DNA of 64,000 bases from a virus: IMG/VR virus record IMGVR_UViG_3300035232_000745. The stretch is one strand, 5' to 3'. The notes beneath the pieces are model-generated. The model did not search any database. It worked only from the letters and a program-made list of their open reading frames with translations, and was not told the origin of the DNA. Below, piece after piece: positions 30,460 to 58,616 of this stretch (positions are counted from its first letter, which is position 1; every line of letters starts with the position of its first letter). Position numbers and translations under genes: made by a program.

Positions 30460-31002
30460 ATGACAAACAAATTAAAGCAACTCACTTGGGCACATCACCA
30501 AGCCGCAGAACGCAGAAAGTTTGCTAAGCAATTAATAAGCGGTGGTATTGATCCATTCGTATATTATAAATTTCTTAATTGCCAATATCTAGTCTACAAG
30601 TTATTAGAAGATATTGTAATTATTCCCCCACATCTTGCAACAATTTATAGGGCACCACGTATACTTCAAGATATTGAAGAACTTGGTGAGATCTACGGGT
30701 TTGATGATATTGATCATTATCCAGAATCTGTAGGCCGTTGTATGTCACACATGCAAGGTTTAGCTGATGCAGATGATAATGATGGTTTACTGTCTCATAT
30801 GTATGTAAGACACTTTGGTGAATTACACGGCGGACAAATCATTAAAGCTAAAACACCTGGGAAAGGTGTAATGTATGAATTTGAAGGTGATACTAAAGTT
30901 CTTATTGAAGAATTCAGAAAACTTTTACACGATGGCATGGAAGTAGAAGCTAAACGTTGTTTCGACTTTGCTTCAGAACTGTTTGACGAATTATCTAAAT
31001 AA
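30460..31002 (+). CDS. heme oxygenase
   Basis: T...H..AE proximal His, HMYVRHFGELHGGQII; late promoter at 30420-27. Confidence 0.9.
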   Translation: MTNKLKQLTWAHHQAAERRKFAKQLISGGIDPFVYYKFLNCQYLVYKLLEDIVIIPPHLATIYRAPRILQDIEELGEIYGFDDIDHYPESVGRCMSHMQGLADADDNDGLLSHMYVRHFGELHGGQIIKAKTPGKGVMYEFEGDTKVLIEEFRKLLHDGMEVEAKRCFDFASELFDELSK

Positions 31003-31064
31003 ACGTTTACATATACGTAAAAATATGGTATTATAAATTAATAATCTATACAAGGAGGAATACA

Positions 31065-31232
31065 ATGCATAATGAAGCATTAGAAGAAGTTAACCTCAAG
31101 CCAAAGCCTCGTGCTTTAAGGATGTTGCGAAGTAGAGCAGCACGAACCAGGCGAAGACTTCAGAAATCAATATCTGAAACTAGATTAGTAAATGAATATA
31201 ATAAATTAAGAAGGCTACGTAAAAAGAAATGA
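31065..31232 (+). CDS. small very basic protein (55 aa, not in ORF track)
   Basis: GGAGG SD, Arg/Lys-rich, ATGA overlap with next ORF. Confidence 0.65.
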   Translation: MHNEALEEVNLKPKPRALRMLRSRAARTRRRLQKSISETRLVNEYNKLRRLRKKK

Positions 31233-31957
31233 TTTTCCATAGAAGGAAAAAAATAACGGTAGATGCTTTTACAGATCAGGAAAATATTGCAAAATATCCA
31301 ATAGAAAGATCTAATAAGCATTTACCGAGTTGGTTTACTGACATGAAAACCGTAATAAAAAAGAAAAGCACTCAAGGATTAGTAGGAAAAACTGCTACGT
31401 TTAAAATGTGTCAAGGCTTTCAAGATAATATTAATAATAGCTTTACTATTTCATTATGGGCAGATTTGATGTTTAGAGTAGAAGTAGATGGAACGTTTTC
31501 ATACCAATACCCAAATAAACTTTGCAACTTTGGAATGGAATCTCATAATAGTCCTGAAGCAACTCCAATGGGTGAATTTGCACCGCTTAAGCATTTAAAG
31601 ATATTTTCGCCCTGGGTTTTAAGAGAAAAAACTGGTGTAAACTTCTATTGGTCTCAAGCTTTTTGGTCTTATGGCGCAGCTGCATCAGATATGCTTATTC
31701 CGCCTGGTGTCGTTAATTACAAATATCAGAATGGAACACATATTAATTTAATGATACAGGCTGGAAAACAATTAGATTTAGACGCAGGTCAACCTCTCGT
31801 TTATCTACATCCTTTAACTGAAAACAAAGTAGAAATCAAAACTCATGTAGTAGATACAAAAGAGTATGAAAAATTAAAGCATGCAACAGTCTATAACAAG
31901 TTTGTAGGCGGATATAAAACACATAAGAAGAACTCAAAATGCACCCACTCTGGATAA
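31229..31957 (+). CDS. hypothetical beta-rich protein (DUF6065-like)
   Basis: P.WF, T.K.C.G, PW...G, PG.V, G.PL..L.P pattern. Confidence 0.65.
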   Translation: MIFHRRKKITVDAFTDQENIAKYPIERSNKHLPSWFTDMKTVIKKKSTQGLVGKTATFKMCQGFQDNINNSFTISLWADLMFRVEVDGTFSYQYPNKLCNFGMESHNSPEATPMGEFAPLKHLKIFSPWVLREKTGVNFYWSQAFWSYGAAASDMLIPPGVVNYKYQNGTHINLMIQAGKQLDLDAGQPLVYLHPLTENKVEIKTHVVDTKEYEKLKHATVYNKFVGGYKTHKKNSKCTHSG

Positions 31958-32622
31958 GACTAAACGAATATGCTGATCATCTTACACAATGCTTTGATCA
32001 GCAATTTACTCGTTATAATAACGAAAAGTATACAGAAGATCTAAAATTTAAAGATTGGAAAGATACTTTTTGGAAATCCGAACAAGTAAGTAAAGTCCAT
32101 CTTAAAACTATTGTACCTGATGATGGTAAAGGTTTATGGCTTATGCATATTAATATATTTCCAAGAGTAGGCATTGAACTGCCGATTTTGGGATTTGATA
32201 TTGTAGCAGGACCTAAAAAAATTACAGGTTCGTTTATGGACTTTTCACCACTGCATGGTTATGATCATGCTTATAATGATTATATGGCGAAAAAAGTTTA
32301 CGGTATCGAATGGAATAAACCACGAGAACTACCCGAATGGGCTAAAGAAATTTTCTCTGATAATATGCTAGCTGTTGGCAATATTAGAGATGGCGAAGAA
32401 CTAGACCAGTTTATGGCCATAACAAAAGATTTGGTTGATCATTACTTAACTAATCTTAAAGACAGTGCGTTTGTATCAAATCGTGATACAAAACCATTAC
32501 TTAACAAATACTGCACAAATCAAAAGATGAACCCTCATCTTCATAGATCTATTTTAGCTATGGGTATTTCAGAGGAAGGAAAAAACCAATACGTCGACGA
32601 CGTTCTATTTGAGGTAATTTAA
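31939..32622 (+). CDS. ferredoxin-dependent bilin reductase (PcyA/PcyX-like)
   Basis: WLMHINIFP..LPILGFDIVAG, DFSP, RELPEWA..IFS, YC.NQK.NP. Confidence 0.88.
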   Translation: MHPLWIRLNEYADHLTQCFDQQFTRYNNEKYTEDLKFKDWKDTFWKSEQVSKVHLKTIVPDDGKGLWLMHINIFPRVGIELPILGFDIVAGPKKITGSFMDFSPLHGYDHAYNDYMAKKVYGIEWNKPRELPEWAKEIFSDNMLAVGNIRDGEELDQFMAITKDLVDHYLTNLKDSAFVSNRDTKPLLNKYCTNQKMNPHLHRSILAMGISEEGKNQYVDDVLFEVI

Positions 32623-32781
32623 ATGGAAAAAGGGTTTACAATTAATGCATGTTGTAGTAGAGTAAACATAATATCTGAATCACAAACATTGACATTCGGC
32701 GAACACTTGTTCCTCGTGACTGTAGTTCATTGTTCTAATTGTGGTTCAATTAAAGCAACTACTAATATTAAGGAACACAAA

Positions 32782-32982
32782 ATGGCAGGCGATACTATAA
32801 TAGTAGAAAAAGCAGGAAAAACACTTAAGGCTGAATATTTTACAACAACAGATGGTTGTGGATGCAGATTTTTTATTAACGAAGAATTTATTCAAGAAGA
32901 ATTATATCAAGGTAAATCTATTACATGGGCAGAAAGTGCTGCGAGTAATTGGTTGTCTGGGGTGAAAACATTAAATGGATAA
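32782..32982 (+). CDS. hypothetical protein
   Basis: start at MAGDT after AAGGA SD. Confidence 0.6.
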   Translation: MAGDTIIVEKAGKTLKAEYFTTTDGCGCRFFINEEFIQEELYQGKSITWAESAASNWLSGVKTLNG

Positions 32983-33229
32983 TAAGGAAAAGGTTATAAA
33001 TCCAAGAACTCCAGAAAAAGTACACCACGATATATCATATATGTTACAAACTGGCGTTAACTATGTTGATGCTCTTGTTGAATATGCTCGTAAAAATGAT
33101 TTAGAAATAGAGGCGGTTGCTGATATTGTTAAAAAGTCTTCGATCTTAAAAGAGAAAGTAAGAAACGAAGCTGTTAAAATGAAAATGGTTATAAGAGAAG
33201 ATGATAAAGACATCACAGAGCTTTGCTAA
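32975..33229 (+). CDS. 33: late transcription coactivator gp33
   Basis: YVDALVEYA..N.LE.E..A.I...LKEK..EA; position before gp59. Confidence 0.85.
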   Translation: MDNKEKVINPRTPEKVHHDISYMLQTGVNYVDALVEYARKNDLEIEAVADIVKKSSILKEKVRNEAVKMKMVIREDDKDITELC

Positions 33230-33803
33230 TGAAGAGTCGTTTAATTGTTACGTAAAGTATCTTGCTATGAAAAAGCATTTTACTACTGATCAATACGACT
33301 ATCATAAGTACAGAGGAAAGATTAGAGCTTCATTCGATACGTATCGTACTCGTAATGATGTTTTCTTCTTCCATAAGCTTGCTCAAAAAGATGATCCAGA
33401 GAAATTACTAATGGCTAACATGATAGTTAAGCCTAATATATGGATAAGAGAAATTCTTGAGCAAGCAGGTGAAGATCGATATATTGACTGGTTGAAGAAG
33501 CGAGACTCGCTTACTCGCGTAGTTAAAGAAGATCTAACCAAATTAAGAGACGTATATCAGGATAATTTTGTTTCAGTTAATGGACAACATCCTGAGATAT
33601 TACGTCTCTTTATACAAAGACAAATAACACTTGAAACTTTTACGATACTTACGCATTCCGCAAAGATATTTGATTATTGGGATGCAAATTTGGTTGACAA
33701 AATCGTGGCACGTGATATTATAAGACTATCTAAGAAGTATTATCCTTTCTTAGATATAGATCAAAAAAAGTTTAAAAAGGTTATCAAAGACTACTTCTTT
33801 TGA
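33201..33803 (+). CDS. 59: helicase loader gp59
   Basis: YLAMKKHF...YDY.KY.GK, R.D.FFF.KL. Confidence 0.9.
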   Translation: MIKTSQSFANEESFNCYVKYLAMKKHFTTDQYDYHKYRGKIRASFDTYRTRNDVFFFHKLAQKDDPEKLLMANMIVKPNIWIREILEQAGEDRYIDWLKKRDSLTRVVKEDLTKLRDVYQDNFVSVNGQHPEILRLFIQRQITLETFTILTHSAKIFDYWDANLVDKIVARDIIRLSKKYYPFLDIDQKKFKKVIKDYFF

Positions 33804-33887
33804 TATAAATAGATGGTGGACACATTCCACATATACATCGCAATATAAAACAAACGCTATACAACGCAAAATTAGGAGAAATAAACC

Positions 33888-34814
33888 ATGACTATGGATT
33901 TCAACGCACTGAAAAAGAATCGTTCAACATCACTTAACAAGTTGAACTCACAGCTCGAAAAGATTACACAGAAGAGCTACTCAGACCCCAACGAAGGTAA
34001 AATTTGGAAGCCTACCCGCGATAAAGCTGGTAATGGCTTTGCTATTATTCGTTTCCTACCAGCAGCACAAGGTGAAGAGATGCCTTTTGTTCGTGTATGG
34101 GATCACGGTTTCCAAGGCCCAACAGGCTTATGGTATATCGAAAACTCACTTACAACTATTAACGTAGACGATCCCGTTTCAGAGTATAACTCTAAACTAT
34201 GGAATTCAGGTATTGAATCTGATAAAGAAATTGCTCGTAAGCAAAAGCGTCGTCTTAAGTATTTCGCAAACGTTTTAGTTGTCAAAGACTCAGCAAATCC
34301 TGAAAACGACGGCAAAGTATTCATGTACCAGTTTGGTGCAAAGATCTTTGAAAAGTTGAACGATTTGATGAACCCACAGTTCGACGATGAAACAGCAATC
34401 AATCCGTTTGATTTCTGGGAAGGTGCTAACTTCCGTCTCAAGATTCAAAAAGTAGCTGGTTATCCCAACTATGATAAATCAGACTTTGATAGCGTATCAG
34501 CAATTGCTGATGATGATTCAGAGATCGAACGTATTTGGAATCAACAGCACAAGTTGCAAGACATGGTTGATCCAAAGAACTTTAAATCATATTCAGAATT
34601 GAAAGCAAAACTTTACAGAGTTCTTGCTCTTGATGAAGAAGCTTCGACACCTTCTACAGCTGAAGAAGATGATGATTTAGATCTAAGCAGCTTCGGTAAT
34701 AAGTCGGCCCCAGAACCTACTTTAAAAGAAGCTATGCCAGCTCAAGCGGCAAGTGTACCTATGGACGATGATGACGACGACCTCTCAATTTTTAAGGAAC
34801 TAGCGAATGGTTAG
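33888..34814 (+). CDS. 32: single-stranded DNA-binding protein gp32
   Basis: DKAGNGFAIIRFLP, WYIEN, FDFWEGANFRLK, acidic tail. Confidence 0.97.
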   Translation: MTMDFNALKKNRSTSLNKLNSQLEKITQKSYSDPNEGKIWKPTRDKAGNGFAIIRFLPAAQGEEMPFVRVWDHGFQGPTGLWYIENSLTTINVDDPVSEYNSKLWNSGIESDKEIARKQKRRLKYFANVLVVKDSANPENDGKVFMYQFGAKIFEKLNDLMNPQFDDETAINPFDFWEGANFRLKIQKVAGYPNYDKSDFDSVSAIADDDSEIERIWNQQHKLQDMVDPKNFKSYSELKAKLYRVLALDEEASTPSTAEEDDDLDLSSFGNKSAPEPTLKEAMPAQAASVPMDDDDDDLSIFKELANG

Positions 34815-35133
34815 TAAAACCTACGAAGAGGTTTTAGATTTTGACTTCGGCTTCAGCTTCATTGATGAAGAGCTTCAGGAAAAAGAAGCTGCGGCCGAGG
34901 AAAAAATTCAAGAAGTCAGTAACGAAAAACAATCACTTGAGGACCAACTCAATGATGCTAAAGTAGCTGCTGACGACTTTGAATATCGTCTAGAACTTCT
35001 ATATAAATCAATTACTCCGTTCTTAGATAATCTTTGTAAGAACGAAGAAAAATCAACAATTTATTGGCCTGATCGAGTAAGTAAGATCGAGGCCTATAAG
35101 ACTAAATTATATAGTATTGTAGAGGGAAAATAA
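34807..35133 (+). CDS. conserved hypothetical protein
   Basis: DFDFGFS...P.L.NL.KN..K..IYWP.R. Confidence 0.7.
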   Translation: MVSKTYEEVLDFDFGFSFIDEELQEKEAAAEEKIQEVSNEKQSLEDQLNDAKVAADDFEYRLELLYKSITPFLDNLCKNEEKSTIYWPDRVSKIEAYKTKLYSIVEGK

Positions 35134-35134
35134 T

Positions 35135-36208
35135 ATGAGTCTATTAGACAAACTAGTGAAAAACAGCACGATTAAAATGACGGCTCCTCTTATGGACTCT
35201 AAAGTTTACGGCAAAAAAGACATGGCACCTACACAGGTTCCAATGGTAAATGTCGCGTTATCAGGTAGAATTGATGGCGGTGTTGTTCCAGGCTTGCTAG
35301 TATTAGCAGGTCCTTCTAAGCACTTTAAATCAGCATTCGCATTGTTGATGGCTGGTGCTTATATGAAAGCAAATCCAGATGCTGTACTATTATTTTATGA
35401 TGCAGAATTTGGTACACCTCAAGCTTACTTCGAATCTTTCGATATTGATATGGATCGTGTAGTACATACTCCAATTACAAATGTTGAAGAACTTAAGTTT
35501 GATATCTCTCATCAGCTTGATCAAGTTGAAAAGGGTGAACAAGTTATCGTTGTTATTGACTCTGTTGGTAACTTAGCTTCTAAGAAAGAAGTAGATGACG
35601 CACTTGATGGTAAGTCAGTTGCAGATATGTCTCGAGCAAAAGCTCTTAAGTCTTTGTTTCGAATTGTTACGCCGCATCTTAATCTTAAAGATATTCCGCT
35701 CATTGCTGTTAACCACACATACAAAGAGATCGGTCTATATCCTAAAGATATTATTTCTGGCGGTACAGGCATTTATTATTCAGCAGATGCTATTTGGATT
35801 ATCGGTCGCCAACAAGATAAAGTTGGTACAGAAATTCAAGGCTATCACTTCGTTATTAATATCGAAAAATCAAGACACGTTAAGGAAAAATCTAAGATTC
35901 CAATCTCAGTGTCATGGGATGGTGGTATTATGAAATGGTCGGGTCTAATGGATGTGGCTGAAAAAGGTGGCTATCTTAACAAGCCTAAAGTTGGATGGTA
36001 TGAAGCTATTAATCCTGAAACTGGTGAAGTCATATCTGAAAAGCTTATGCGTGCCAAAGAAGTTAACGATAATAAAGAGTTTTGGCTAAAAATGTTTGAA
36101 GAAACTAATTTTGCTTCTTACATCAAGAGTCACTTTACAATCGGAGCTGGTGGTTCGATCATGAGAAACGATGACGACGAAGTTATTGAAGAGACCTCAG
36201 TCGAATAA
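35135..36208 (+). CDS. uvsX: RecA-like recombinase
   Basis: AGPSKHFKS, DSVGNLASKKE, DMSRAK, GGTG..YSAD. Confidence 0.96.
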   Translation: MSLLDKLVKNSTIKMTAPLMDSKVYGKKDMAPTQVPMVNVALSGRIDGGVVPGLLVLAGPSKHFKSAFALLMAGAYMKANPDAVLLFYDAEFGTPQAYFESFDIDMDRVVHTPITNVEELKFDISHQLDQVEKGEQVIVVIDSVGNLASKKEVDDALDGKSVADMSRAKALKSLFRIVTPHLNLKDIPLIAVNHTYKEIGLYPKDIISGGTGIYYSADAIWIIGRQQDKVGTEIQGYHFVINIEKSRHVKEKSKIPISVSWDGGIMKWSGLMDVAEKGGYLNKPKVGWYEAINPETGEVISEKLMRAKEVNDNKEFWLKMFEETNFASYIKSHFTIGAGGSIMRNDDDEVIEETSVE

Positions 36209-36301
36209 GGTTGACATTTTCAACTTAATGTTTTACTATAAATTTGTGGCGGGTAATTATGTTGCTCGCCACAATTCAACTTAGAATTCTGGGAATATAT
36301 A

Positions 36302-37732
36302 ATGATCGAAGCAACAGTACTATCTAATCTGATATTTAATGAAGACTACTTTAGAAAAGTATATCCTTATATTAAAACAGATTACTTTGAAGACCACAAT
36401 CTTCAAAAGATATTCAACACTTACTCCGAGTATGTAGATGAATATCGTGATCCTCCATCAATAGAGGTTCTAAAATTACAACTTGATAAAAAGAAAGATA
36501 TGAACGAGGATACGTATAAAAACGTAATGTCCTCTGTAGATACACTAAAAGTTGATGAGAAAACAGACTTTGATTGGCTAGTTAAAGAAACTGAGAAGTT
36601 TTGCCAAGATAGAGATCTATACAATGCAATCCGTAAAGCAATCTTAGTTGTTGATGGATCAGAAACTGAATTAAGTAAAGACGGTTTACCAGCGCTACTT
36701 CAGGACTCATTAGGTATAAGCTTTGATACAAGTGTAGGCCATGATTTTCTTGAAGACTATGAAGCACGTTATGACTTCTATCACAAGAAAGAAGAGCGTA
36801 TTCCTTTTGATATAGATATTATGAATAAGATTACGAAGGGTGGTTTGCCTCGTAAATCAATGACAGTTCTTTTGGCTACAACTGGTGGCGGTAAATCTTT
36901 AGTTAAATGCCATGCCGCAGCAGCAGCTTTACTTCATGGTAAAAACGTATTATATATTACTATGGAAATGGCTGAAGAACGTATTTCAGAACGCATAGAT
37001 GCTAATATGCTTAATGTTACTATTGATGAAGTAGCTGAAATGCCACGCGATGTATACTACAAACGTATGGAACGCATCAAAGGCAAATCAACTGGCAAGT
37101 TAGTTGTTAAAGAATTCCCAACAGGTTCTGCACACGTAGGTCACTTTCGTCATCTCTTAACAGAGCTACGAATGAAACGTAACTTCAAACCAGATATTAT
37201 TATGATTGATTATCTAAACATATGTGCATCAGCTCGTGTCAAAGGTGCTGCTGCAGCTAATTCATATACATTAGTTAAGTCAATTGCAGAGGAGGTACGT
37301 GGTCTTGCGATGGAATACAATTGTGCTGTTATTACTTCGTCTCAATTTAATCGTGACGGGTACGGGAATACTGACGTTGATCTTACTAATACTTCTGAAA
37401 GTATGGGAATAACACATACTGCTGATTGCATATTAGGTCTAATTACAACAGAAGAATTAGATAATCTAGGCCAGCTTATGATTAAACAATTAAAGAATAG
37501 ATGGGGTGATTTAAGTTACTATCGTAGATTTGTTGTAGGTATTGATAGAGCTAAGATGCAACTATACGATCTTGAAGATGGAGCACAAAATTTAAGTCAA
37601 GCTCCAGCAGTTGCTAATACAATGCCAAGACCTTCCGTTTCTTTTAGTGATGATAATGGTCCAGTATTTGATAAAGGTCCACTTGGCAGAGTTGATAAGA
37701 AATCATTGTTCGGTGCAGGAGGGATTTCATGA
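36302..37732 (+). CDS. 41: DnaB-like replicative helicase gp41
   Basis: TKGGLP, ATTGGGKS, EMAEE.I.ERIDAN, DYLNIC, QLKNR. Confidence 0.96.
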   Translation: MIEATVLSNLIFNEDYFRKVYPYIKTDYFEDHNLQKIFNTYSEYVDEYRDPPSIEVLKLQLDKKKDMNEDTYKNVMSSVDTLKVDEKTDFDWLVKETEKFCQDRDLYNAIRKAILVVDGSETELSKDGLPALLQDSLGISFDTSVGHDFLEDYEARYDFYHKKEERIPFDIDIMNKITKGGLPRKSMTVLLATTGGGKSLVKCHAAAAALLHGKNVLYITMEMAEERISERIDANMLNVTIDEVAEMPRDVYYKRMERIKGKSTGKLVVKEFPTGSAHVGHFRHLLTELRMKRNFKPDIIMIDYLNICASARVKGAAAANSYTLVKSIAEEVRGLAMEYNCAVITSSQFNRDGYGNTDVDLTNTSESMGITHTADCILGLITTEELDNLGQLMIKQLKNRWGDLSYYRRFVVGIDRAKMQLYDLEDGAQNLSQAPAVANTMPRPSVSFSDDNGPVFDKGPLGRVDKKSLFGAGGIS

Positions 37733-37923
37733 GTTACGTAGTGTTTACTTCATTGAAGAATAAAAAGAAATACGATATCGTAGAAACAAAATGGAATACA
37801 AGAATTGAATTAAGAATTGCTAAGAACGAAGCAAACAAGTTAGCTCGTAGACTTAATCTTGGTAATGGGTTTGGTTCTGGTCCTGTACCAGCTTTCTTCT
37901 GCATAAAAACATCAAACGCGTGA
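37729..37923 (+). CDS. small hypothetical protein
   Basis: coupled ORF, LNLG.GF...P.FF. Confidence 0.6.
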   Translation: MSYVVFTSLKNKKKYDIVETKWNTRIELRIAKNEANKLARRLNLGNGFGSGPVPAFFCIKTSNA

Positions 37924-38114
37924 TGAAAAAGATAGTTCTTGTAAGAAATCGCATGTTGCTTTCTGCTTTGTTGAAAGCGTTAATTCGTTATATGAACTAT
38001 CAAGAAAAAACTAAAAAATATATTAACCCTAAATCTCAATGGTCCGGGGTTAATAATACAGAAGAAACTCTTATGCTTCAAGTTAAGAGAGTTTTAGAAA
38101 GACGATTGGGTTAA
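37920..38114 (+). CDS. small hypothetical protein
   Basis: coupled ORF. Confidence 0.45.
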   Translation: MMKKIVLVRNRMLLSALLKALIRYMNYQEKTKKYINPKSQWSGVNNTEETLMLQVKRVLERRLG

Positions 38115-38482
38115 GACGTGTAACCACTTTCTTTAGTGAGTTTCATAATGACGTGGAATGGTCCGTCGCCAATGATGCGTATGTCTCTATCTGCATATAC
38201 GTTGTCTACGAAACCTGTATATTCATGAGAACCAGAGTTAACAAAATAATAATGTCCGTGAGCAGTTGCGCCATCCCACCTAGATACATCTACGTGTTTG
38301 TTGACTTTACAACCCCAAAATATTTCTTTAATTGTAACAGAAGCTGTACCCGAATCAAAAGTTTCGCCAGCAGCGGCAAGGTCTGATAGTGCAACATCAA
38401 CAGTATCGCCAGATGAGTCTGTTACGTATACTTTGATTACTGCTTCGTTCTGTGATCTTTTTAAATAATGAATACTAGACAT
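38111..38482 (-). CDS. putative virion protein
   Basis: start MSSIH after GAGG SD; late promoter on - at 38503-10. Confidence 0.65.
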   Translation of the reverse strand: MSSIHYLKRSQNEAVIKVYVTDSSGDTVDVALSDLAAAGETFDSGTASVTIKEIFWGCKVNKHVDVSRWDGATAHGHYYFVNSGSHEYTGFVDNVYADRDIRIIGDGPFHVIMKLTKESGYTS

Positions 38483-38637
38483 TGCAACCTCTTTTTTTAT
38501 TTTATTTATAAAATGACAAACTGTCACATTTTCACTTGGTGCATAACCGCAATGCCAAATAGGGCATGCTAATTTACCAATTTCCTTAATAAATAAAATT
38601 GTAAAACAGTTTAACACTTATTAGGAAAGGTACCAGA

Positions 38638-39543: not shown

Positions 39544-39558
39544 CAAAGAGGAAACGTA

Positions 39559-39693: not shown

Positions 39694-39701
39694 GATATAA
39701 T

Positions 39702-40130
39702 ATGAAAACACTTTATTTTTATTTAGCAGTCTTCGCCGCAGTATTTACAGTGAGCGCAGCAAACGCAGACGTAACAATCGAAATGTTAAACAAGCGCGAC
39801 GATGGCGCTAAGATGGTTTACTCACAAGATATTACACGTATCGAAGTGGGTGAGATTATCACATGGATACCAACATCAAAAGGTCATAACGTAGAATTTA
39901 TTGCAGGACCAGACGGATGGAAGTTGCCTAAGAAATCAAAATTAAATAAAGTAGTTGAGATGCAGTTCAATACACCTGGTGTATATTTGTATCAATGTTC
40001 ACCACATAAAACAATGGGCATGATTGCTATTGTCGTTGTAGGTGATGGCGGAGATGGTTTATCTGTTCCAGGTAAAAAGATTAAAGGCAAGTCAAAGAAA
40101 AGACTTAAAGAAATAATGGCTGACCTATGA
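39702..40130 (+). CDS. pseudoazurin (type 1 blue copper protein)
   Basis: signal peptide, GHNV, YQCSPHKTMGM ligands. Confidence 0.9.
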   Translation: MKTLYFYLAVFAAVFTVSAANADVTIEMLNKRDDGAKMVYSQDITRIEVGEIITWIPTSKGHNVEFIAGPDGWKLPKKSKLNKVVEMQFNTPGVYLYQCSPHKTMGMIAIVVVGDGGDGLSVPGKKIKGKSKKRLKEIMADL

Positions 40131-46067: not shown

Positions 46068-46522
46068 AAAGATTTATTCAGTTTACAGAAAACGCTAGTT
46101 ACTATAAAGGCATTCCTAAAAAACAAAAAGATGACAGAGAACGTCATTTTGAAAAAGGCGCAAAGATGGATGATGGTAATCCAGCTGCTTATAAACCTGC
46201 TCCAGGAGATAAAGATGCTAAGACTAAAGAGTCAAAGCATACAAAGAAAGCACGCGCAATGGGTTTTACAAACGAAGAGTTTGATTTCTTAGGAGAAGAC
46301 GCTGCAGGTAAATCTTTAGCAGATAAAGCAAAAAAATCGGGTATGGCCGCAGGTATTTTGCGTAAAGTATATAATAGAGGTGTTGCGGCATGGCGTACTG
46401 GACATAAACCTGGCACAACTCCACAACAATGGGGTCATGCTAGGGTAAATTCTTTCATTACAAAGTCTTCTGGTACTTGGGGAGGAGCTGATAAAGACTT
46501 AGCTTCTAAGGTAAAAAAATGA
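46064..46522 (+). CDS. putative internal head protein (DUF5824-like)
   Basis: MKRFIQFTE; VYNRG.AAW.TGH.PG..PQQW..ARVNSF. Confidence 0.65.
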   Translation: MKRFIQFTENASYYKGIPKKQKDDRERHFEKGAKMDDGNPAAYKPAPGDKDAKTKESKHTKKARAMGFTNEEFDFLGEDAAGKSLADKAKKSGMAAGILRKVYNRGVAAWRTGHKPGTTPQQWGHARVNSFITKSSGTWGGADKDLASKVKK

Positions 46523-47424
46523 TAACTTTTAAACAATATATAGCAGAACAAGAAGATAAGGCTACACCTGGCTTTGATAAAGATAAAGATGGAAACGTTT
46601 TTGTTGCTCATGATACTTCATTCGACAGGAAAAAAGAAAAAGAAAAGAAAAAAGATACTAACGAATCTATAATAAAAAAAGTTAAAAAAGCTTTTGGCGT
46701 TAAAGCAGATCATGAAAAATCTTTAGCTGATCACGCTGCGAGTCATAATAAAACAGATCACAGTGAACATCTATCAAACCATTCTTCTCGCGCACATGAT
46801 GACAATCATGAGAGTGAAGCTTTCGGTCATTTTAAACGTAACTCTTCAGAAATGAATGAGCATTTAATAAGTCAGCATAAAAAAGGATTAAGTCCTGATC
46901 ATCACAAAGGCTACAGTAAAAAAGCTGCTCACGAGCACAAAATACATAAAATGGACCATTCGCATTGGGATGACCACAGTGAATTTCCTGATCGTCACGA
47001 GCAAAAACATATTCGCAATAGCGAAGCCCATGTGCATCACACAATCCATAAACATTCTAAACCTCTTGGTAAAAAAATAACTTTGTATCACGGTTCACAT
47101 CACGACTTTGGTGCAGCAGCTGCAAAACATCCAAAAGGTATAATTCACAACCCAGCTCATATGTCTACATCACATGATCATAAATCAGCAAAAGAATTTG
47201 GAAGCGGACATATTCTTGCAATTCACGCCGATAAGAAAACTAAAGCCGTTCATATAGACGGCGAAGGCGCACGCCAACAGTCCAACCATCCTGAAAAAGA
47301 AACAGTTCTTCCAGCTGGAACTAAATTAAAACATGTTAAATCACATAAAACATCCGACGGCTATACAGTACACCACTTTAAAGTCCATAGTCAACACGAT
47401 AATGGCAAGCATTACGATCACTAG
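46519..47424 (+). CDS. His-rich ADP-ribosyltransferase-like internal head protein
   Basis: MITFKQYIAE; TLYHG, MSTS, EKETVLPAGTKL. Confidence 0.7.
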   Translation: MITFKQYIAEQEDKATPGFDKDKDGNVFVAHDTSFDRKKEKEKKKDTNESIIKKVKKAFGVKADHEKSLADHAASHNKTDHSEHLSNHSSRAHDDNHESEAFGHFKRNSSEMNEHLISQHKKGLSPDHHKGYSKKAAHEHKIHKMDHSHWDDHSEFPDRHEQKHIRNSEAHVHHTIHKHSKPLGKKITLYHGSHHDFGAAAAKHPKGIIHNPAHMSTSHDHKSAKEFGSGHILAIHADKKTKAVHIDGEGARQQSNHPEKETVLPAGTKLKHVKSHKTSDGYTVHHFKVHSQHDNGKHYDH

Positions 47425-50346: not shown

Positions 50347-50384
50347 TATAAATAGAATATAGTTTAAACAAAGGAGGCAGTAAA

Positions 50385-50591: not shown

Positions 50592-50608
50592 GTCGTTGAT
50601 CTAAAAAT

Positions 50609-51133
50609 ATGCCATCATTCTTATATTTAGGCATTATAATCATGGCAATGGGTGGAGGCGGTGCAGTCTACTACAAATCCACCCAAGCCAAAATTGTAGA
50701 ACTTGTACAATATAATGCCACATTGACAGCACAAGTAGATCAGATTGCTCAAGTTAATGAAAAGAACTTAGCAACAATTGCTGACATGCAAGCAAACTTT
50801 GAACGTCAAAGAGAGCAATATGATGAGTTGCAAAAATCATTCAGCGAAATTAACGCACAGAAAAATCAATTGCAAAAACGCTTAGGTGACCACGATTTAG
50901 GAGCATTAGCTGCTGCTAAGCCTACATTAGTAGAAAGGGTCGTTAACGGAGCTTCTAAGAAAGCTTTTAGATGTTTTGAATTGGAATCAGGAGCTGAACT
51001 AACAGATAATGAAAGGAAAGCTAAAAATGCAAAAGCGTTTAATAGCGAGTGTCCTTGGGTTTACGATGATCTTATCGCTAGCGGCGTGCTCATCAAATCC
51101 GATAGTGGAACCACCGCCGAAAATAATAACTGA
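50609..51133 (+). CDS. i-spanin (Rz-like)
   Basis: N-terminal TM, coiled coil, overlaps a lipoprotein gene, near endolysin. Confidence 0.7.
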   Translation: MPSFLYLGIIIMAMGGGGAVYYKSTQAKIVELVQYNATLTAQVDQIAQVNEKNLATIADMQANFERQREQYDELQKSFSEINAQKNQLQKRLGDHDLGALAAAKPTLVERVVNGASKKAFRCFELESGAELTDNERKAKNAKAFNSECPWVYDDLIASGVLIKSDSGTTAENNN

Positions 51134-51389
51134 AACAGAATACGTTAAACCATCTAAACCAATTGTTCCTAATCCTCCTCAATTAACTATGAGAGAAATA
51201 GAATTTATAATTGTAACTCCAGAAAATGTAGATGAAGTATTCGCAAAACTAAAATCTGAAGATAAGGCAATATTTGGTTTAACGGATAAAGGTTATGGAG
51301 ATATAGCTTTGAATCTTGCAGATTTAAGAGCATACATTCAACAACAAAAGAAAATCATAGGCATATACGAATCTCAGTATGACCAGTAA
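51027..51389 (+). CDS. o-spanin lipoprotein (Rz1-like)
   Basis: lipobox LAAC, Pro-rich segment. Confidence 0.72.
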   Translation: MQKRLIASVLGFTMILSLAACSSNPIVEPPPKIITETEYVKPSKPIVPNPPQLTMREIEFIIVTPENVDEVFAKLKSEDKAIFGLTDKGYGDIALNLADLRAYIQQQKKIIGIYESQYDQ

Positions 51390-51541
51390 GAATAGCAGTT
51401 ATGCTATAAAAAAGTCTATTTTGTTGAACCAACCAGCCCAATATTCATAAATATAGATATATCATTTCTAGTGTGATTATATTATAATCATGGAGTTCGC
51501 CACTAGCCTCCGTTATCAAAAGGCATTAAAGGAATAATATA

Positions 51542-52036
51542 TTGTCAAAAGAACAAACTAATTGGGAAACAGATATACGCCTAATACAAAGTGATATCAA
51601 ACAAATCCAAAAGTTCTTTAACAAGGTTGAATCATCAATGGAACTTATGGTCGACCTTAGTAAAAACGTTGCTGTCCAGTCAGAAGTAATCGCTTTTACA
51701 AAAGAAAAGTTAGAAGAAATTGAACGTACGGTTGACGAAACTAGACGTAATGAAGATTTACGTTTACAAGTATTGAGCGATAGGTTAGAAGAATACAGAC
51801 GATCGTCTCGTGGAGACCATGAAAAACTTGCGCAGCACAACGCTGAAAAACGAGCTATGAGTAATAAAGAAATACTTGAAAAGCTTGAAGTAATGGAACG
51901 TGGTTTGCATTCTCGTATCAACGATCAGAATAAAAAAGTTAATGCCCTAGAAAATTGGAAATACTATATGATGGGTATTGGCGGGGTAATCGTTCTTCTT
52001 GTCGCGCGAATTAATTGGCCATATCTTTTTAATTAA
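51542..52036 (+). CDS. coiled-coil protein with C-terminal TM
   Basis: LENWKYYMMG..G tail. Confidence 0.65.
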   Translation: MSKEQTNWETDIRLIQSDIKQIQKFFNKVESSMELMVDLSKNVAVQSEVIAFTKEKLEEIERTVDETRRNEDLRLQVLSDRLEEYRRSSRGDHEKLAQHNAEKRAMSNKEILEKLEVMERGLHSRINDQNKKVNALENWKYYMMGIGGVIVLLVARINWPYLFN

Positions 52037-52040
52037 GTTG

Positions 52041-52069
52041 TGTACATCTGACAGATTCCGGCGTATAAT
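52041..52069 (+). promoter_or_regulatory. sigma70-like promoter of primase
   Basis: TGTACA-17-TATAAT with GATTC in spacer. Confidence 0.6.
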
Positions 52070-52101
52070 GTTATTATCACGCAACATGGAATCAATTTAT
52101 A

Positions 52102-53112
52102 ATGGTAGATTTTGTAGACATACAATATGCTCAAATGCTTTCTGGTCGTCTAGATCAGTTTAAGATAAAACATACTAATCCGTATAAAATCAACTTTCGT
52201 TGTCCTATCTGTGGTGACTCTCAAAAGTCACGCTCAAAGGCACGCGCTTGGTTGTTAGAACGAGACAACAAATTCTCATTCTATTGTCATAATTGTAATG
52301 CTTCTCAAGGATTTTCATATTTCCTTAAAGGCCAAGATATGCAATTATACAATGATTACGTAGCTGATAAGTTTGTAGGTAAAGCTAATAATACTATTAA
52401 GGATACCAAACAAGACGATGATAAGTTTAAGACTAAGGCTCCTGTTTTTAACAAAACAAATCCTCTTGCCAAAATTAAAAAGGTAAGTCAGCTTAAACAT
52501 GATCATCCTATAAAGCGTTATATCAATCAACGTAAAATTCCACCATCACATCATTACCGTTTATATTTTGCGCGTAAGTTTAAAACATGGATTAATGAAA
52601 TTATTCCTGGTAAGTTTCAAAGTGTAAAGCACGACGAACCTCGTTTAATCATTCCGTTTCTAGACGAACGCGGTAATTGTTTTGGTGTCTCAGCGCGTGG
52701 ATTTGATCCTGAAGGTATCAGATATATAACTATAATGTTTGAAGATAGACCAAAGATATTTGGTTTAGATAAAGTAGATCAAACCCAAATATATTATATT
52801 GTAGAAGGCGCTATTGACAGTTTCTTCTTATCAAATGCAATATCTATGAATGGTGCTGAAGGTAATAGTAATTCTGCTAACGATAACGCTGTATATGTCT
52901 TTGATGCAGAGCCTAGAAATAAAGAGATATGCAATCGCATGGAGAAGGTTATTAAGAACGGCCATAAAGTTTGTATTTGGCCATCTGATATAGATGGTAA
53001 AGATATAAACGAAATGTTTCTAGCAGGATTAAATCCTGAAAGAATAATAGAAGAAAATACGTACTATGGTTTAACAGCCGAATTAAAATTAGCCGCATGG
53101 CGCAAAACTTGA
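52102..53112 (+). CDS. 61: DNA primase gp61
   Basis: NFRCPICGDS, CHNC zinc finger, VEGAIDS, D.EPRNKEI, KDINEM. Confidence 0.96.
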   Translation: MVDFVDIQYAQMLSGRLDQFKIKHTNPYKINFRCPICGDSQKSRSKARAWLLERDNKFSFYCHNCNASQGFSYFLKGQDMQLYNDYVADKFVGKANNTIKDTKQDDDKFKTKAPVFNKTNPLAKIKKVSQLKHDHPIKRYINQRKIPPSHHYRLYFARKFKTWINEIIPGKFQSVKHDEPRLIIPFLDERGNCFGVSARGFDPEGIRYITIMFEDRPKIFGLDKVDQTQIYYIVEGAIDSFFLSNAISMNGAEGNSNSANDNAVYVFDAEPRNKEICNRMEKVIKNGHKVCIWPSDIDGKDINEMFLAGLNPERIIEENTYYGLTAELKLAAWRKT

Positions 53113-53122
53113 AGGATTAAAA

Positions 53123-53794
53123 ATGAAAGCTAGACTAATCGCATATTCACAACCATCCAAAGATGAAATCATTGGTTTGGACGACGTACAAGATTTAATC
53201 GCGTACTGCGCAAGAGTATCAAACCCATCGAACCAATTAAACCAAGAAACAGCTCCTAAGCTATTGTCATATCTTGCTAAACATGCTCATTGGTCACCGT
53301 TTGAAATGGCTAATGCTACTATGGAAATTGAAACAACCCGTGATATCGCTCGCCAAATGTTACGTCATCGTTCATTTGCATTCCAAGAGTTTAGCCAACG
53401 CTATGCTGATATCCGTGACCTAGATAGTAAAATGGTTGTTCGTAAAGCTAGATTACAAGATCCAAAAAATCGGCAAAACAGCGTTATGACTGACGATGTA
53501 TCTCTGCATATGGCTTGGGAAGTTCATCAACGAAATGTTTGGAACGAAGCAATGAAATCATATGCGTGGGCTATTGAAAATGGTATCGCAAAAGAACAGG
53601 CTCGTGCTATTTTACCTGAAGGTAATACACCAAGTCGTTTATATATGCAAGGTTCTATTCGTTCGTGGATCCATTATATTGAACTACGTTCGTCTAATGG
53701 AACACAACAAGAACATATGGAAATTGCTATTGCTTGTGCCGAAGCCATCACAAAAATATTCCCAAGCATCGGCGCTTTTATTCAAAAAGATTGA
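53123..53794 (+). CDS. thyX: flavin-dependent thymidylate synthase
   Basis: HWSPFE, RHRSFAFQEFSQRY, AKEQAR. Confidence 0.97.
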   Translation: MKARLIAYSQPSKDEIIGLDDVQDLIAYCARVSNPSNQLNQETAPKLLSYLAKHAHWSPFEMANATMEIETTRDIARQMLRHRSFAFQEFSQRYADIRDLDSKMVVRKARLQDPKNRQNSVMTDDVSLHMAWEVHQRNVWNEAMKSYAWAIENGIAKEQARAILPEGNTPSRLYMQGSIRSWIHYIELRSSNGTQQEHMEIAIACAEAITKIFPSIGAFIQKD

Positions 53795-53937
53795 CATATT
53801 ACCACATATGTGGTACCGTAGTTGATAAATACACCTACCAATTGATAGACTCATTGGTAGAATTCCAAATAAAAGTAGTAAACGTTGCATAGTTTTGTGA
53901 TGCGTACTACTTTACACTTTTAAACAAAGAGGCGCCT

Positions 53938-55233
53938 ATGATGTTAGAGAATACGCAACCAATTTCAAATGTAATAGAACTATTAAGACCGGTTAATTAT
54001 GTAACAAAACGTGACGGAACTACAAAAGATTTCGATAAAGACAAGATTACAGCAGCCGTAGAAAAAGCTATGAAAGGTATTGGAATTAGAAGTAAAAACT
54101 TATCAAGTGAGATTACTTCTGAAGTCGTAGAAACTATCAATCTAGAATCAAATGATGTTATTGTAAATGTTGATACTATCCATAAAACAGTAGAGAATGT
54201 TATAATGGATATGGGTTTACACGATTTAGCTCGTGAGTATATCCTATTTCGTTTTAACAACAAACCAGACATCTTTCGTAAGCGCACAAGCTTAAAGCCA
54301 TACGAGTATCCTCAACTAGTAGAATATACTGACGCTATTCGTCATTCATATTGGGTACACACTGAGTTTAATTATTCAGCTGATATTCAAGACATGAAGG
54401 TCCGTATGAAACCAGAAGAAGTCGAAATCGTAAAGAAAGCCATGTTGGCTATCTCTCAAATTGAAGTTGCAGTTAAAACTTTCTGGGCTAAAATTGGCGA
54501 TAGATTTCCTAAACCTGAAATCGCGGCAGTTGGTATTACATTTGGCGAATCAGAAGTTCGTCATGCCGATGCATATTCAAACTTAATCGAGATTATGGGT
54601 CTTAATGAAGAGTTTGAAAAAGTAGTAGAAGTACCTGCGATGAAAAAGCGTATTGCTTATTTAGAGCAATCAATTGGTTCTCCTGCAGATGATAAAGACT
54701 ATTTCCACAAAATCATTCTATTCTCTATGTTTGTTGAAAACGTATCTTTATTCTCTCAGTTCTTAATTATGATGGCTTTCAATAAACACAAGAATGTTCT
54801 TAAAGGTATTTCAAATGCAGTTGAAGCAACATCAAAAGAAGAAGATATCCACGCTCGTTTCGGATTTGAGCTTGTAAATATTATCCGTGAAGAAAACCCA
54901 GAATGGTTCGATAAAGATAGTAATAACGAAGTTAATCGTCTTTGCCGTGATGCGTTCAAAGCCGAGTCTGCAATCGTTGATTGGATTTATGCCGAGCATG
55001 ATTTAGACTTTTTACCCAAAGCAACAGTGAAAGAATTCCTTAAGCATCGCTTTAATCAATCGTTAAAAGCTATTGATATGAAGCCTTTGTACGAGGTTGA
55101 TGAAGAAGCAATTGCAAGTACTGAATGGTTCGTAGAAGAAATCCTAAGTACCAAAAATGTTGATTTCTTTGTCAAGCGTTCGACCGCTTATTCTAAGAAG
55201 ACAAAGGCATTCACTGAAGACGATTTATTTTAA
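53938..55233 (+). CDS. nrdB: class I ribonucleotide reductase beta subunit with N-terminal ATP-cone
   Basis: VTKRDG...FDKDKI..AV ATP-cone; SQIEVAVK, ESEVRH, EN.SLFSQF, KEEDIH. Confidence 0.93.
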   Translation: MMLENTQPISNVIELLRPVNYVTKRDGTTKDFDKDKITAAVEKAMKGIGIRSKNLSSEITSEVVETINLESNDVIVNVDTIHKTVENVIMDMGLHDLAREYILFRFNNKPDIFRKRTSLKPYEYPQLVEYTDAIRHSYWVHTEFNYSADIQDMKVRMKPEEVEIVKKAMLAISQIEVAVKTFWAKIGDRFPKPEIAAVGITFGESEVRHADAYSNLIEIMGLNEEFEKVVEVPAMKKRIAYLEQSIGSPADDKDYFHKIILFSMFVENVSLFSQFLIMMAFNKHKNVLKGISNAVEATSKEEDIHARFGFELVNIIREENPEWFDKDSNNEVNRLCRDAFKAESAIVDWIYAEHDLDFLPKATVKEFLKHRFNQSLKAIDMKPLYEVDEEAIASTEWFVEEILSTKNVDFFVKRSTAYSKKTKAFTEDDLF

Positions 55234-55244
55234 GGAAGTATATT

Positions 55245-56942
55245 ATGAGAAAATACAAAAAATTCTATTGGCTAAATGATGACTCCAAGACATTTTTGTC
55301 GCGCGGTTATCTAGAAGAAAAAGAAAAGCCGCAAGACCGTATCCGTTTCATTGCTGATAAAGCTGAATGGTACCTTAAGGATATGGCAAAAACAAAAGCA
55401 GGTAAAGCTTCTTATGACGGCTTTTCTGATAAATTTTATGACTACATGAGTCGTGGTTTTTATTCCCTAGCATCCCCTATTTGGGCAAACTATGGTAAAG
55501 AACGTGGGTTGCCAGTATCATGTTTTGGATCGTACATCGATGATAGCATGTCAGCAATCTTATTCGGCCATGCAGAAAATGGCATGTTGATGAAAAATGG
55601 TGGTGGTACATCAGGTTATTTTGGCGCAATCAGACACCGTGGAGCTCCTATCCGAGACTCAGGTGAATCTTCAGGTTCTGTGCACTTCATGCAGATGTAC
55701 GATACTTTGGCTTCAGTCGTATCACAAGGTTCAGTACGTCGTGGTTTCTTTGCTGCATATCAAGACATTGAACACCCAGACGCTGACGAGTTTCTAGACA
55801 TTGGCACAGAAGGTAATCCTATTCAAGGGTTAACAACTGGCATCAATGTTAGTAACAAATTCATTGATGAAATGAAAGCTGGAGATCCAGACAAACGTCG
55901 TCTATGGGCAAAGGTACTACAACGTCGTTCTGAAATTGGTTTCCCTTATATTCTATTTTCAGATAACGTAAACGATGGTCGACCGCAAGTATATAAAGAT
56001 AAGGATATGAGAGTACACGCTTCAAATATGTGTGCTGAAATTGCATTACCATCTTCACACGAGGAAACGTTTACATGCGTATTGTCTTCTCTTAATGTTT
56101 TACATTGGGATGAAATCAAAGAAACAGATGCGATTGAAACATTGACTATGTTCCTTGATACGGTATGCGAAGAGTTTGTTCGTAAAACAGCTGGTCAAAT
56201 CTATATGAAACGTGCTCGTGATTTTGCTATGAAACACCGTGCCCTTGGTGCTGGTATTTTAGGATGGCATTCTCATCTACAATCTAAAATGATTTCCTTT
56301 GAGTCAAAAGAAGCATCTCAGTTAAACCTTGAGATTGCTAAAACAATGCAAGAACGTTCGTATGAAGCGTCTCGTCAAATGGCTAAAACATTAGGTGAAC
56401 CAGAATTACTTGAAGGTTATGGAATGCGTAATACCACAACAATGGCTATTGCTCCTACTAAATCATCAAGCTTTATCCTTGGTCAAGTATCACAATCTAT
56501 TGAGCCAGAATTCTCTAACGCTTATGTTAAAGATCTAGCGAAAATGAAAGTTACTATTCGCAATCCATATTTAAAAGAATTGTTAATTAGTAAAGAACAA
56601 GATACGCCAGATGTATGGGAATCAATTAAAAACCGTGACGGATCTGTTCAGCATCTTGAGTTCTTAACTGAAGACGAACGTGCAGTATTTAAAACTTTCT
56701 CAGAGATTAGTCCAAATACTATTATTGACCAAGCTGCAATTCGTCAACAGTACGTTGATCAAAGTCAAAGCTTAAACTTAATGTTAGATCCAGATATGAC
56801 TGTCAAAGATATTAATGCCCTATATTTGTACGCAAACGAGATGGGTGTTAAGAGTTTATATTATGCTTATTCTATGTCAGCAGCACAATCTCTTACGAGG
56901 AAACGTGTTATGTCAGCAGATTGCGCAGCGTGTGAAGCATAA
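55245..56942 (+). CDS. nrdA: class I ribonucleotide reductase alpha subunit (no ATP-cone)
   Basis: [26 protein letters not shown]-terminal CAAC. Confidence 0.95.
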
Positions 56943-56949
56943 AAATAAT

Positions 56950-58143
56950 ATGGAATATATGAAATACTTTGAAAACACGATTGACGAATACAAATCAGAC
57001 GGAAGATATAGAGTCTTTAACGATATATTGAGAGAGCGGGGGAATTTCCCTCGCTCAATATGGTATGGAAAATATGCTCCAAAGAATATAGTTAACTGGT
57101 GCTCAAATGATTATTTGGGCATGGGTCAAAATCAGTATGTTATTGATGCTATGCACACAGCTCTGGATCAAACCGGTGCTGGTTCTGGAGGAACAAGAAA
57201 TATTGGTGGAACATCTCACTATCACGTAACACTTGAAAGAGAATTAGCATCTTTACATAAAACAGAGTCTTCATTACTTTTCTCTAGTGCTTATGTAGCA
57301 AATGAGTGGACTTTAATAGCCTTATCTAGAATCATACCAAATATCTGTTTTATATCAGATAACAAAAATCATGCTTCTTTAATCATGGGAATAAAACATT
57401 CTCGTAGTGAAAAAAGAGTATTTAAACATAACGATATGAACGATTTAGAAGCAACGTTAAAGAAAGTCGTTAAACAAAAATTAAATCCTGTAATCGTATT
57501 CGAGTCCGTGTATAGTATGGACGGTGATATATCTCCTATCAAAGATATTGTTGCGTTGGCGCATAAATATAACGCGTTAACTTATATTGATGAAGTTCAC
57601 GCAGTAGGTTTATATGGTGAGACTGGTGGCGGATATTGTGAACAATTAAACATGTACTCTGACGATATAGATATAATTAACGGAACGCTTGGTAAAGCTT
57701 TCGGTGTACAAGGAGGTTATATTGCAGCTAATAAAACGATTGTTGATGCTATTAGATCAGTCGCAAGCGGATTTATATTCACAACATCCATCTCACCTGT
57801 TTTGTGTGCTGGGGCTATCGCCTCTATAAATTACGTAAAAGATCACAAATCACTTAGAGAAAAACATCAATCAAAAACTAAGCAGCTTAAGAAAATGCTT
57901 AGAAGAAGGAATATACCAGTGCATGAAAATGCATGTACTCATATTGTTCCTATAATGGTAAACGACGCGTTTAAATGCAAAGAAGCAAGCGATCGGTTAC
58001 TTAACGAATACGGCATATATATTCAAGCAATCAACTCACCAACTGTAGAAGCTGGAACAGAAAGATTGCGCATTGCTCCGACTCCATTCCACACAGATAA
58101 CATGATGATGGAGTTGGTATCAGCTCTAAGGGATGTATTATAA
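56950..58143 (+). CDS. hemA: 5-aminolevulinate synthase
   Basis: [41 protein letters not shown] lysine. Confidence 0.95.
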
Positions 58144-58616
58144 TGAATCAATTACAAGCCGCTTTCTTTAGCGGTCAAACACAGAAAGATAATAGTATGA
58201 CTAAGATTAAAAAAGCCTTTTGGTTTGTATTAGGCATCCTCTTGGTAGGCGTAGCTTATTTAGGAGTATTACTACCTGGACTACCGTGGAGTACACCTAT
58301 TTTAGGGGCGACGTTTTGTTTTGCCAAGTCCTCCGACCGTTTACACAACTGGATTATGAACCACCCAAGGTTTGGTCCATTTGTTAAAAACTGGTCTAAA
58401 CTAAGAGTTTACCCTCAAAAAGCAAAATATTTAATGGTTGCAGTAATGTCAACATCATTAGGATTTATGTATTTTGGTACGGGAAATATAAAAGCAACAT
58501 TGTATATGTTTATTATGTTTGCACTAATCGTTATTTGGGCATGGCGTTACCCAGGTAGTAAAGCGGAAGCAGAACGTCGTATTGAAGCCGGTGAAAAAAT
58601 CGGTTGGTTAAAGTAA
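58143..58616 (+). CDS. YbaN/DUF454 inner-membrane protein
   Basis: GV.LPGLP..P...A.FCF.KSS.RLH.W...HP.FGP. Confidence 0.85.
   Translation: MNQLQAAFFSGQTQKDNSMTKIKKAFWFVLGILLVGVAYLGVLLPGLPWSTPILGATFCFAKSSDRLHNWIMNHPRFGPFVKNWSKLRVYPQKAKYLMVAVMSTSLGFMYFGTGNIKATLYMFIMFALIVIWAWRYPGSKAEAERRIEAGEKIGWLK

Follow-up and report, generated by a model that had tools for sequence, protein, structure and literature searches.

Viral genes for 5-aminolevulinate synthase (ALAS; viral gene valaS, protein vAlaS) have been described on marine and freshwater phage contigs, where they occur in three forms (Wegner et al. 2024, Nat Commun, PMC11480375). In one of these, the 'broken cassette', the genes hemO and pcyA/X lie together and valaS is located apart from them; marine valaS contigs were placed with pelagimyophages. 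One vAlaS, one vHemO and one vPcyA have been demonstrated to be active, vAlaS activity being established only for the enzyme of the CB_2 phage, and in many vAlaS proteins His342 and Cys400, the residues of heme feedback, are missing. What the bilin enzymes are for was called enigmatic, and iron supply, phytochromes and bilin-binding globins were discussed (PMC11480375). Here, we analyzed a stretch of 64,000 nucleotides from IMG/VR record IMGVR_UViG_3300035232_000745 (the window, which represents part of a phage genome of approximately 36% G+C) that encodes a heme oxygenase, a ferredoxin-dependent bilin reductase (FDBR) and an ALAS followed by a protein of the DUF454/YbaN family. A relative of the reductase, PcyX (PDB 5OWG, EBK42635), is reportedly the phycoerythrobilin (PEB) synthase of uncultured oceanic phages, as attributed to Ledermann (2016/2018). 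Among cultured phages, Pelagibacter phage Mosig EXVC030M alone has a related FDBR (31% identity) beside a heme oxygenase. It differs from the window in that its FDBR is of the Asp type, the gene pair precedes the neck genes and neighbors 2OG-Fe(II) oxygenases as well as a putative ferrochelatase, and neither ALAS nor DUF454 is present.

Based on gene content and layout, the window very probably carries the viral tetrapyrrole gene set known from the literature, as a further case of its split form, and belongs to a marine T4-like myophage. Like the published broken cassette (PMC11480375), it combines adjacent hemO and FDBR genes with a valaS located elsewhere, the encoded ALAS being devoid of the feedback residues, in a T4-like marine phage. 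Unlike the broken cassette as published, it harbors an FDBR with a characteristic Lys residue (Lys type), the ALAS gene is part of an nrdBA operon, and a translationally coupled DUF454 gene follows valaS. A previous sequence-only reading of this DNA had proposed a tetrapyrrole route in a non-cyanobacterial phage, and the genes it named, those for heme oxygenase (30460), bilin reductase (31939), HemA (56950, directly after nrdA) and YbaN, are all present with Pfam and NCBIfam scores above the cut-offs. Its main claim is a rediscovery, since the gene set including the split arrangement, along with a discussion of iron versus a bilin acceptor, had been published by Wegner et al. (PMC11480375). 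A heterotroph phage encoding both the initial step of heme synthesis and the branch from heme to bilin was thus reported in 2024, and the window adds one marine example. Two features go beyond that account, the clade of Lys-type FDBRs and the pairing of ALAS with DUF454; its main text and accessible supplements mention neither DUF454/YbaN nor a Lys-type FDBR. The corresponding genes are:

30460-31002, + strand: heme oxygenase (vHemO), 180 aa; PF01126, E 3.2e-17, 63.5 bits against a cut-off of 23
31939-32622, + strand: FDBR of the PcyA/PcyX lineage, Lys type; PF05996, E 1.2e-18, 68 bits against 31
53938-56942, + strand: nrdB and nrdA, the operon preceding ALAS; NCBIfam matches
56950-58143, + strand: ALAS (vAlaS), 397 aa; TIGR01821, 565 bits against a cut-off of 338.55
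58143-58616, + strand: DUF454/YbaN-family inner-membrane protein; PF04304, 96.8 bits against 35.1, aligned over profile positions 1-114 of 115

We compared the predicted enzymes with characterized relatives, and family assignments and residue states were read directly from the alignments. The heme oxygenase retains the proximal His (aligned with His20 of HmuO) and the distal G-x-x-x-GGQ helix (YVRxxGxLxGGQ) when compared to HmuO and Syn HO-1. The ALAS aligned with the solved ALAS structures 7X98 and 2BWN at 428 and 390 bits, respectively, and in both alignments retains the pyridoxal phosphate-binding lysine (Lys248 in R. capsulatus) within the GTL-x-K-A motif. The residues of heme feedback are missing: His342 of the R. 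capsulatus enzyme is replaced by Lys, and the chain stops at residue 397, before Cys400. An assignment as BioF or KBL was rejected, as the scores for these families (321 against a cut-off of 426 and 308 against 460, respectively) were too low and TIGR01821 exceeded the KBL, BioF and SPT models. The start codon of ALAS is located 8 nt past the nrdA stop codon, and nrdBA precedes ALAS in 30–36 of 80 viral ALAS loci, which were the best 80 of 450 related IMG/VR stretches. Within this operon, NrdB (53938-55233, + strand) has an N-terminal ATP-cone-like segment (residues ~18–110) that matches the ATP-cone regions of NrdA/NrdD models; NrdA (565 aa, TIGR02510) has no ATP-cone.

The best solved relative of the FDBR is PcyX (5OWG, 134 bits), compared to approximately 55 bits for PcyA. 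The residues His70 and Asp87 correspond to His69/Asp86 of PcyX and His88/Asp105 of PcyA, a catalytic pair that among FDBRs is common only to PcyA and PcyX, and they are invariant in 88–89 of 89 related sequences. At the position of Asp55 in PcyX and Glu76 in PcyA the enzyme has Lys56, and the same residue occurs in 81 of these 89 viral sequences; Asp occupies the position in the Mosig FDBR and in the FDBRs of more distant ALAS contigs. In a quick maximum-likelihood tree (IQ-TREE, 118 sequences), the sequences with the Lys/His/Asp combination formed one clade (SH-aLRT 99) with two Gln-type sequences as the sister group (likewise SH-aLRT 99). Together, these were nested in the half of the tree that comprises Asp-, Ser- and Asn-type phage-like FDBRs as well as Mosig, and the Glu-type PcyA half, including cyanophage PcyA, was separate. 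The Lys-type clade is a large and abundant marine one.

The window FDBR thus shares with PcyX the tree half, the equivalents of His69/Asp86, the location beside a heme oxygenase and a non-cyanobacterial phage as carrier; it differs by an identity of only about 31–35%, by Lys in place of Asp55 and by its separate, well-supported clade. With PcyA, which occurs in cyanobacteria, cyanophages and the freshwater phage CB_2, it has the fold family and the His88/Asp105 pair in common. However, it scored 93 bits against the PcyA model NF002760 with its cut-off of 206, has Lys instead of Glu76 and falls into the tree half opposite to cyanophage PcyA, and it does not classify as PcyA. Because the PcyX-specific Asp55 is replaced by Lys, we file the protein as a predicted PcyX-like enzyme rather than as PcyX. 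The sequence-only reading had assumed a PEB-producing PcyX; the PcyX side of the lineage holds according to both the 5OWG score and the tree, but the residue at position 55 does not fit this assumption. In PcyA, Glu76 is required to reduce the 18-vinyl group, yielding phycocyanobilin (PCB), and PcyX, which has Asp at this position, produces PEB (PMC13446030). PCB formation by the CB_2 enzyme, a viral FDBR without Asp55, was ascribed to the missing residue (Wegner et al. 2024, PMC11480375). Since Lys occupies the position that determines regiospecificity (Glu in PcyA, Asp in PcyX), the residue does not predict whether the enzyme would produce PEB, PCB or another bilin.

The DUF454 gene is coupled to ALAS and is part of the module; its ATG overlaps the ALAS stop codon (TAATG). 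The true start may be Met19 at 58197, since most relatives have a length of 137–139 aa. DUF454 was found downstream of ALAS in 65–66 of the 80 viral ALAS loci; in about half of the cases the two genes overlap or lie within ~20 nt, and in the remaining ones one to three genes are inserted. All-against-all clustering of the neighboring ORFs identified DUF454 as the most constant neighbor of ALAS, with 65 loci compared to 36 for NrdB as the next best. The loci without DUF454 were mostly cut by a contig end, and one 318-kb contig has DUF454 ~90 kb from ALAS. In the reverse direction, we examined the best 80 loci of at least 580 viral DUF454 contigs; ALAS occurred within 6 kb in 53 of them and elsewhere on the contig in four more; DUF454 without ALAS was present on two large records of 330 kb (93% complete) and 137 kb (68% complete). 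The tie between ALAS and DUF454 is therefore strong, but not absolute. On a further contig (L259, IMGVR_UViG_3300022591_000519, positions 6001–10700), DUF454 is located 3 kb upstream of a heme oxygenase-FDBR pair, and this contig of 49.6 kb also carries ALAS at another place.

In 16 genomes that possess both genes and belong to the class of the nearest genome (G001, see below), taken as Alphaproteobacteria, ALAS and DUF454 were never adjacent. Neither gene was found in any genuine cultured phage of a 50,697-record collection; the ALAS-like matches obtained there were rejected as KBL/BioF genes on contaminated or transducing records only. Phage DUF454 proteins belong to the same Pfam family as E. 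coli YbaN and have the same bacterial core motif (G..LP..P....F....CFA[KR]SS.R.H.W...H..FGP), including two conserved histidines. In contrast to the bacterial proteins, they possess an additional conserved C-terminal tail, which is missing from alphaproteobacterial homologues, and their genes are tied to ALAS, which those of bacteria are not. E. coli ybaN is part of the conserved core Fur regulon (PMC7157518, PMC10164565), and an Avibacterium DUF454 gene is upregulated under iron restriction (PMC7970244). E. coli cells overproducing vAlaS accumulate porphyrins (supplement of PMC11480375), and given this finding the pairing is also relevant to the question of how cells deal with ALA synthesis that is not regulated. 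It is a reasonable hypothesis that DUF454 helps to handle the products of the deregulated ALAS. A more specific proposal, which we offer tentatively and which may well prove wrong, is that DUF454 would be a dedicated membrane partner of the deregulated viral ALAS, serving as a tether or in ALA, porphyrin or heme overflow, and that, separately, the Lys-type clade would make a bilin other than PEB. If true, a widespread Fur-regulated family of unknown function would for the first time be given a functional context, and a further FDBR specificity class would be defined in heterotroph phages. Genomic clues to what this conserved, iron-regulated bacterial family does are rare, and the pairing itself provides one.

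Synteny and co-occurrence were determined across relatives, for the FDBR on 80 loci kept of the 128 nearest IMG/VR stretches. The order heme oxygenase-(ORF55)-(ORF242)-FDBR-ORF119-gp33-gp59, in which brackets mark optional genes, is common to 72–77 of these 80 loci, and the heme oxygenase is upstream of the FDBR in 72. The three small ORFs are:

31065-31232, + strand: ORF55, 55 aa, Arg/Lys-rich and very basic; strong AAGGAGG ribosome-binding site
31229-31957, + strand: ORF242, an optional insert with a predicted dUTPase-like beta fold; phrog_7084 (function unknown), AF2 pLDDT 82.7
32623-32982, + strand: ORF119, between FDBR and gp33, with a predicted Cys-rich zinc-ribbon-like N-module and a small beta-sheet/helix C-module; AF2 pLDDT 71.7

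ALAS was present on three of five long FDBR contigs, among them a 221-kb record rated 100% complete, and the other two break off within 25 kb past the FDBR, too early to be informative. Conversely, seven of ten long ALAS contigs harbor an FDBR, even at only 32–48% identity to that of the window. The co-occurrence of hemA with the pair that the sequence-only reading had expected in related phages was thus observed. ALAS is located 25–29 kb downstream of the FDBR on G002, G003, G006 and a contig recovered in both scans (L134/L011; FDBR ~26 kb upstream of ALAS, as in the window), and the broken-cassette layout accordingly occurs in the window and on these four. Almost identical DNA was encountered in numerous studies, in marine as well as viral-fraction metagenomes. 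An independently assembled viral-fraction contig covers positions 29465–33227 with 15 differences and includes the whole stretch from heme oxygenase to ORF119.

The carrier and its host were deduced from several markers. The window encodes gp33, gp59, gp32, UvsX and a gp41-type helicase of a T4-like phage, together with ThyX and a class I ribonucleotide reductase, and the closest cultured relatives of gp41 are Sinorhizobium phages (52% identity). A tmRNA gene is also present:

29204-29501, + strand: permuted (two-piece) tmRNA of the alphaproteobacterial type; RF01849 109 bits, RF04321 109 bits

According to ARAGORN, the tag peptide is ANENFAPSGYALAA. The tmRNA, located ~1 kb upstream of the heme oxygenase, represents a useful host indicator. 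The alphaproteobacterial-type tmRNA, the Shemin-type ALAS and the Sinorhizobium-phage relatives of gp41 point to a non-cyanobacterial and probably alphaproteobacterial host, in agreement with the non-cyanobacterial phage named in the sequence-only reading. The nearest genome, a 3.6-Mb bin (G001; contigs C102, C116, C183 and C169), contains three different phage-like ALAS-DUF454 contigs, with ALAS identities of 98, 75 and 73%, and also an ALAS of its own (54% identity) with no DUF454 beside it. This bin could be an infected host or could contain mis-binned phage contigs; because of the possible mis-binning it was dropped as a host indicator, and no host was drawn from it.

Heme oxygenase, FDBR and ALAS look catalytically intact. 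We infer enzyme activities, timing of expression and purpose as follows. ALAS, encoded last in the nrdB-nrdA operon and devoid of feedback residues, would convert glycine and succinyl-CoA to 5-ALA free of product control, and host enzymes would process ALA to heme. The heme oxygenase would then cleave heme to biliverdin IXalpha, Fe2+ and CO, and the FDBR, supplied with electrons by a host ferredoxin, would reduce biliverdin to a phycobilin. The heme oxygenase gene is preceded by a possible control region:

30392-30427, + strand: stem-loop and T-run terminator followed by a T4-type late-promoter motif, TATAAATA; sequence reading

The motif (30420–30427) is positioned 33 nt before the heme oxygenase start, after the terminator of the gene upstream. 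That gene (29536-30336, + strand) encodes a porin-like protein of 266 aa with a signal peptide and a C-terminal aromatic end; it had an Atlas score of 0.94 to Porin_4 clusters and no Pfam match, and it is kept directly upstream of the heme oxygenase in 41 of the 80 related loci. Between its stop codon and the terminator, a 19-nt direct repeat, AACTTACTCTACACAGTAA, occurs twice with a spacing of 27 nt (30336–30381, + strand).

Several observations weigh against such a continuous route. Mosig has heme oxygenase and PcyX without ALAS, indicating that the pair can function in the absence of a viral ALAS. In the window, ALAS and the heme oxygenase/FDBR pair are 25 kb apart in different modules, so that a single purpose shared by the whole pathway is something we can only infer. 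With Lys in place of Asp55/Glu76, catalysis could be altered or weaker. The motif TATAAATA is not enriched, with 14 occurrences in the window compared to 11.6 expected by chance, and therefore only its intergenic placement is suggestive. The sequencing runs labelled as RNA were assembled contigs flagged as probably DNA that cover only parts of 29200–33300, and they bear neither way on transcription.

The alternative that survives best, which we consider possible but doubtful, is that two independent functions are involved. ALAS would sustain the supply of host heme, B12 or bacteriochlorophyll in the course of infection, and heme oxygenase and FDBR would mainly free iron from heme and clear inhibitory biliverdin, with the bilin as a by-product. 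The iron would serve phage iron enzymes, such as the di-iron NrdB and Fe-S proteins assembled via IscA. The iscA and pseudoazurin genes reported by the sequence-only reading were both recovered:

3750-4034, - strand: IscA/HesB-type Fe-S assembly protein; PF01521 46.5 bits, C-terminal CGCGESF motif
39702-40130, + strand: cupredoxin (pseudoazurin/plastocyanin family); PF00127 51.3 bits

The phage-borne iscA gene fits this alternative, as do the placement of ALAS beside nrdB/nrdA in an operon of nucleotide metabolism 25 kb from the pair and the gene content of Mosig, and iron supply is among the options discussed by Wegner et al. (PMC11480375). That no bilin acceptor was found on five related ALAS- and FDBR-bearing phage contigs (four incomplete, one complete genome) points in the same direction; the searches there yielded no Fer2 ferredoxin, ferrochelatase, phycobiliprotein-type globin or GAF domain. 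In the window, a Pfam scan of ~65 ORFs detected no phycobiliprotein or GAF family (bilin lyase families were not specifically searched), in agreement with the absence of phycobiliprotein and phytochrome noted in the sequence-only reading. A regex scan of the window revealed no credible ferredoxin, no further heme-pathway gene was found on the phage, and no bilin acceptor was found encoded near heme oxygenase and FDBR. However, ALAS and FDBR share genomes across two deeply diverged FDBR subclades with different architectures, a four-electron reductase exceeds what is needed for biliverdin clearance, and newly synthesized heme costs as much iron as its cleavage releases. The case that the sequence-only reading had made against iron scavenging is reasoning and not evidence.

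A degenerate or non-catalytic FDBR, in which case only biliverdin, iron and CO would matter, is very unlikely. The Lys in place of Asp55/Glu76 would be in line with such a loss, given that Glu76 of PcyA is essential for vinyl reduction (PMC13446030). However, the 80 nearest viral relatives, at identities of 67–91%, all have this Lys as a fixed residue, with His and Asp invariant, which indicates purifying selection on a working site, and pre-PcyA enzymes with a non-acidic residue at this position are still active FDBRs.

The sequence-only reading had further proposed the two ORFs between heme oxygenase and FDBR as candidates for the bilin receptor. Both are located inside the pair, neither has an assigned function, and ORF242 is always in this position in the 13 of 80 related loci in which it occurs. 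However, it is missing from the other 67, including that of the closest relative (L086, FDBR identity 91%), in which ORF55 is directly followed by the FDBR. A distant cyanophage homologue of ORF242 is located among unrelated hypothetical genes with no bilin genes near it. The structural model of ORF242 gave no match at E ≤ 0.001 with Foldseek against the PDB; in a wider fold search (VIA) it resembled dUTPases (Z 10.2, rmsd 3.1, 125 aligned residues), suggesting a dUTPase-like fold. To our knowledge, the dUTPase fold is not known to bind bilins. ORF55 was detected in 26 of the 80 loci and has no family match. ORF119, located at the edge of the gp33-gp59-gp32 block, is the most constant neighbor (77 of 80 loci); its halves are separate ORFs in some loci, and none was found among cultured phages. 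The best fold match to its model was MmoD, at a Z of only 7.9, the Atlas lead remained below 0.9, and no bilin-binding fold was matched. For both ORF242 and ORF119, there was no Pfam match and no recognizable bilin-binding fold or family, a search which an unlisted fold would escape. None of the three ORFs resembles a known bilin-binding protein, and with ORF242 so often missing and dUTPase-like and ORF55 a short Arg/Lys-rich peptide of restricted occurrence, we regard a receptor role of either as highly improbable.

Further genes of the window were recorded along with this analysis. Upstream of the tmRNA, a multi-pass membrane protein of 321 aa (28209-29174, + strand) has no Pfam or PHROG match; its identity across many viral contigs is 72–93%. 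ALAS is within 10 kb of it in 20 of 80 loci and FDBR in 15 of 80, and the protein has two ND/HD-x-x-(Q/N) motifs that, by eye, recall PiT-type transporters. A weak, sub-threshold match to PF03496 (20.3 bits) was obtained for an ADP-ribosyltransferase-like protein (46519-47424, + strand). The region around iscA also encodes a class 3 lipase (4494-5228, - strand; PF01764, 77.9 bits) and a 681-aa protein combining a CHASE2 sensor with an adenylate/guanylate cyclase catalytic domain (5730-7775, - strand), which is an unusual cargo for a phage.

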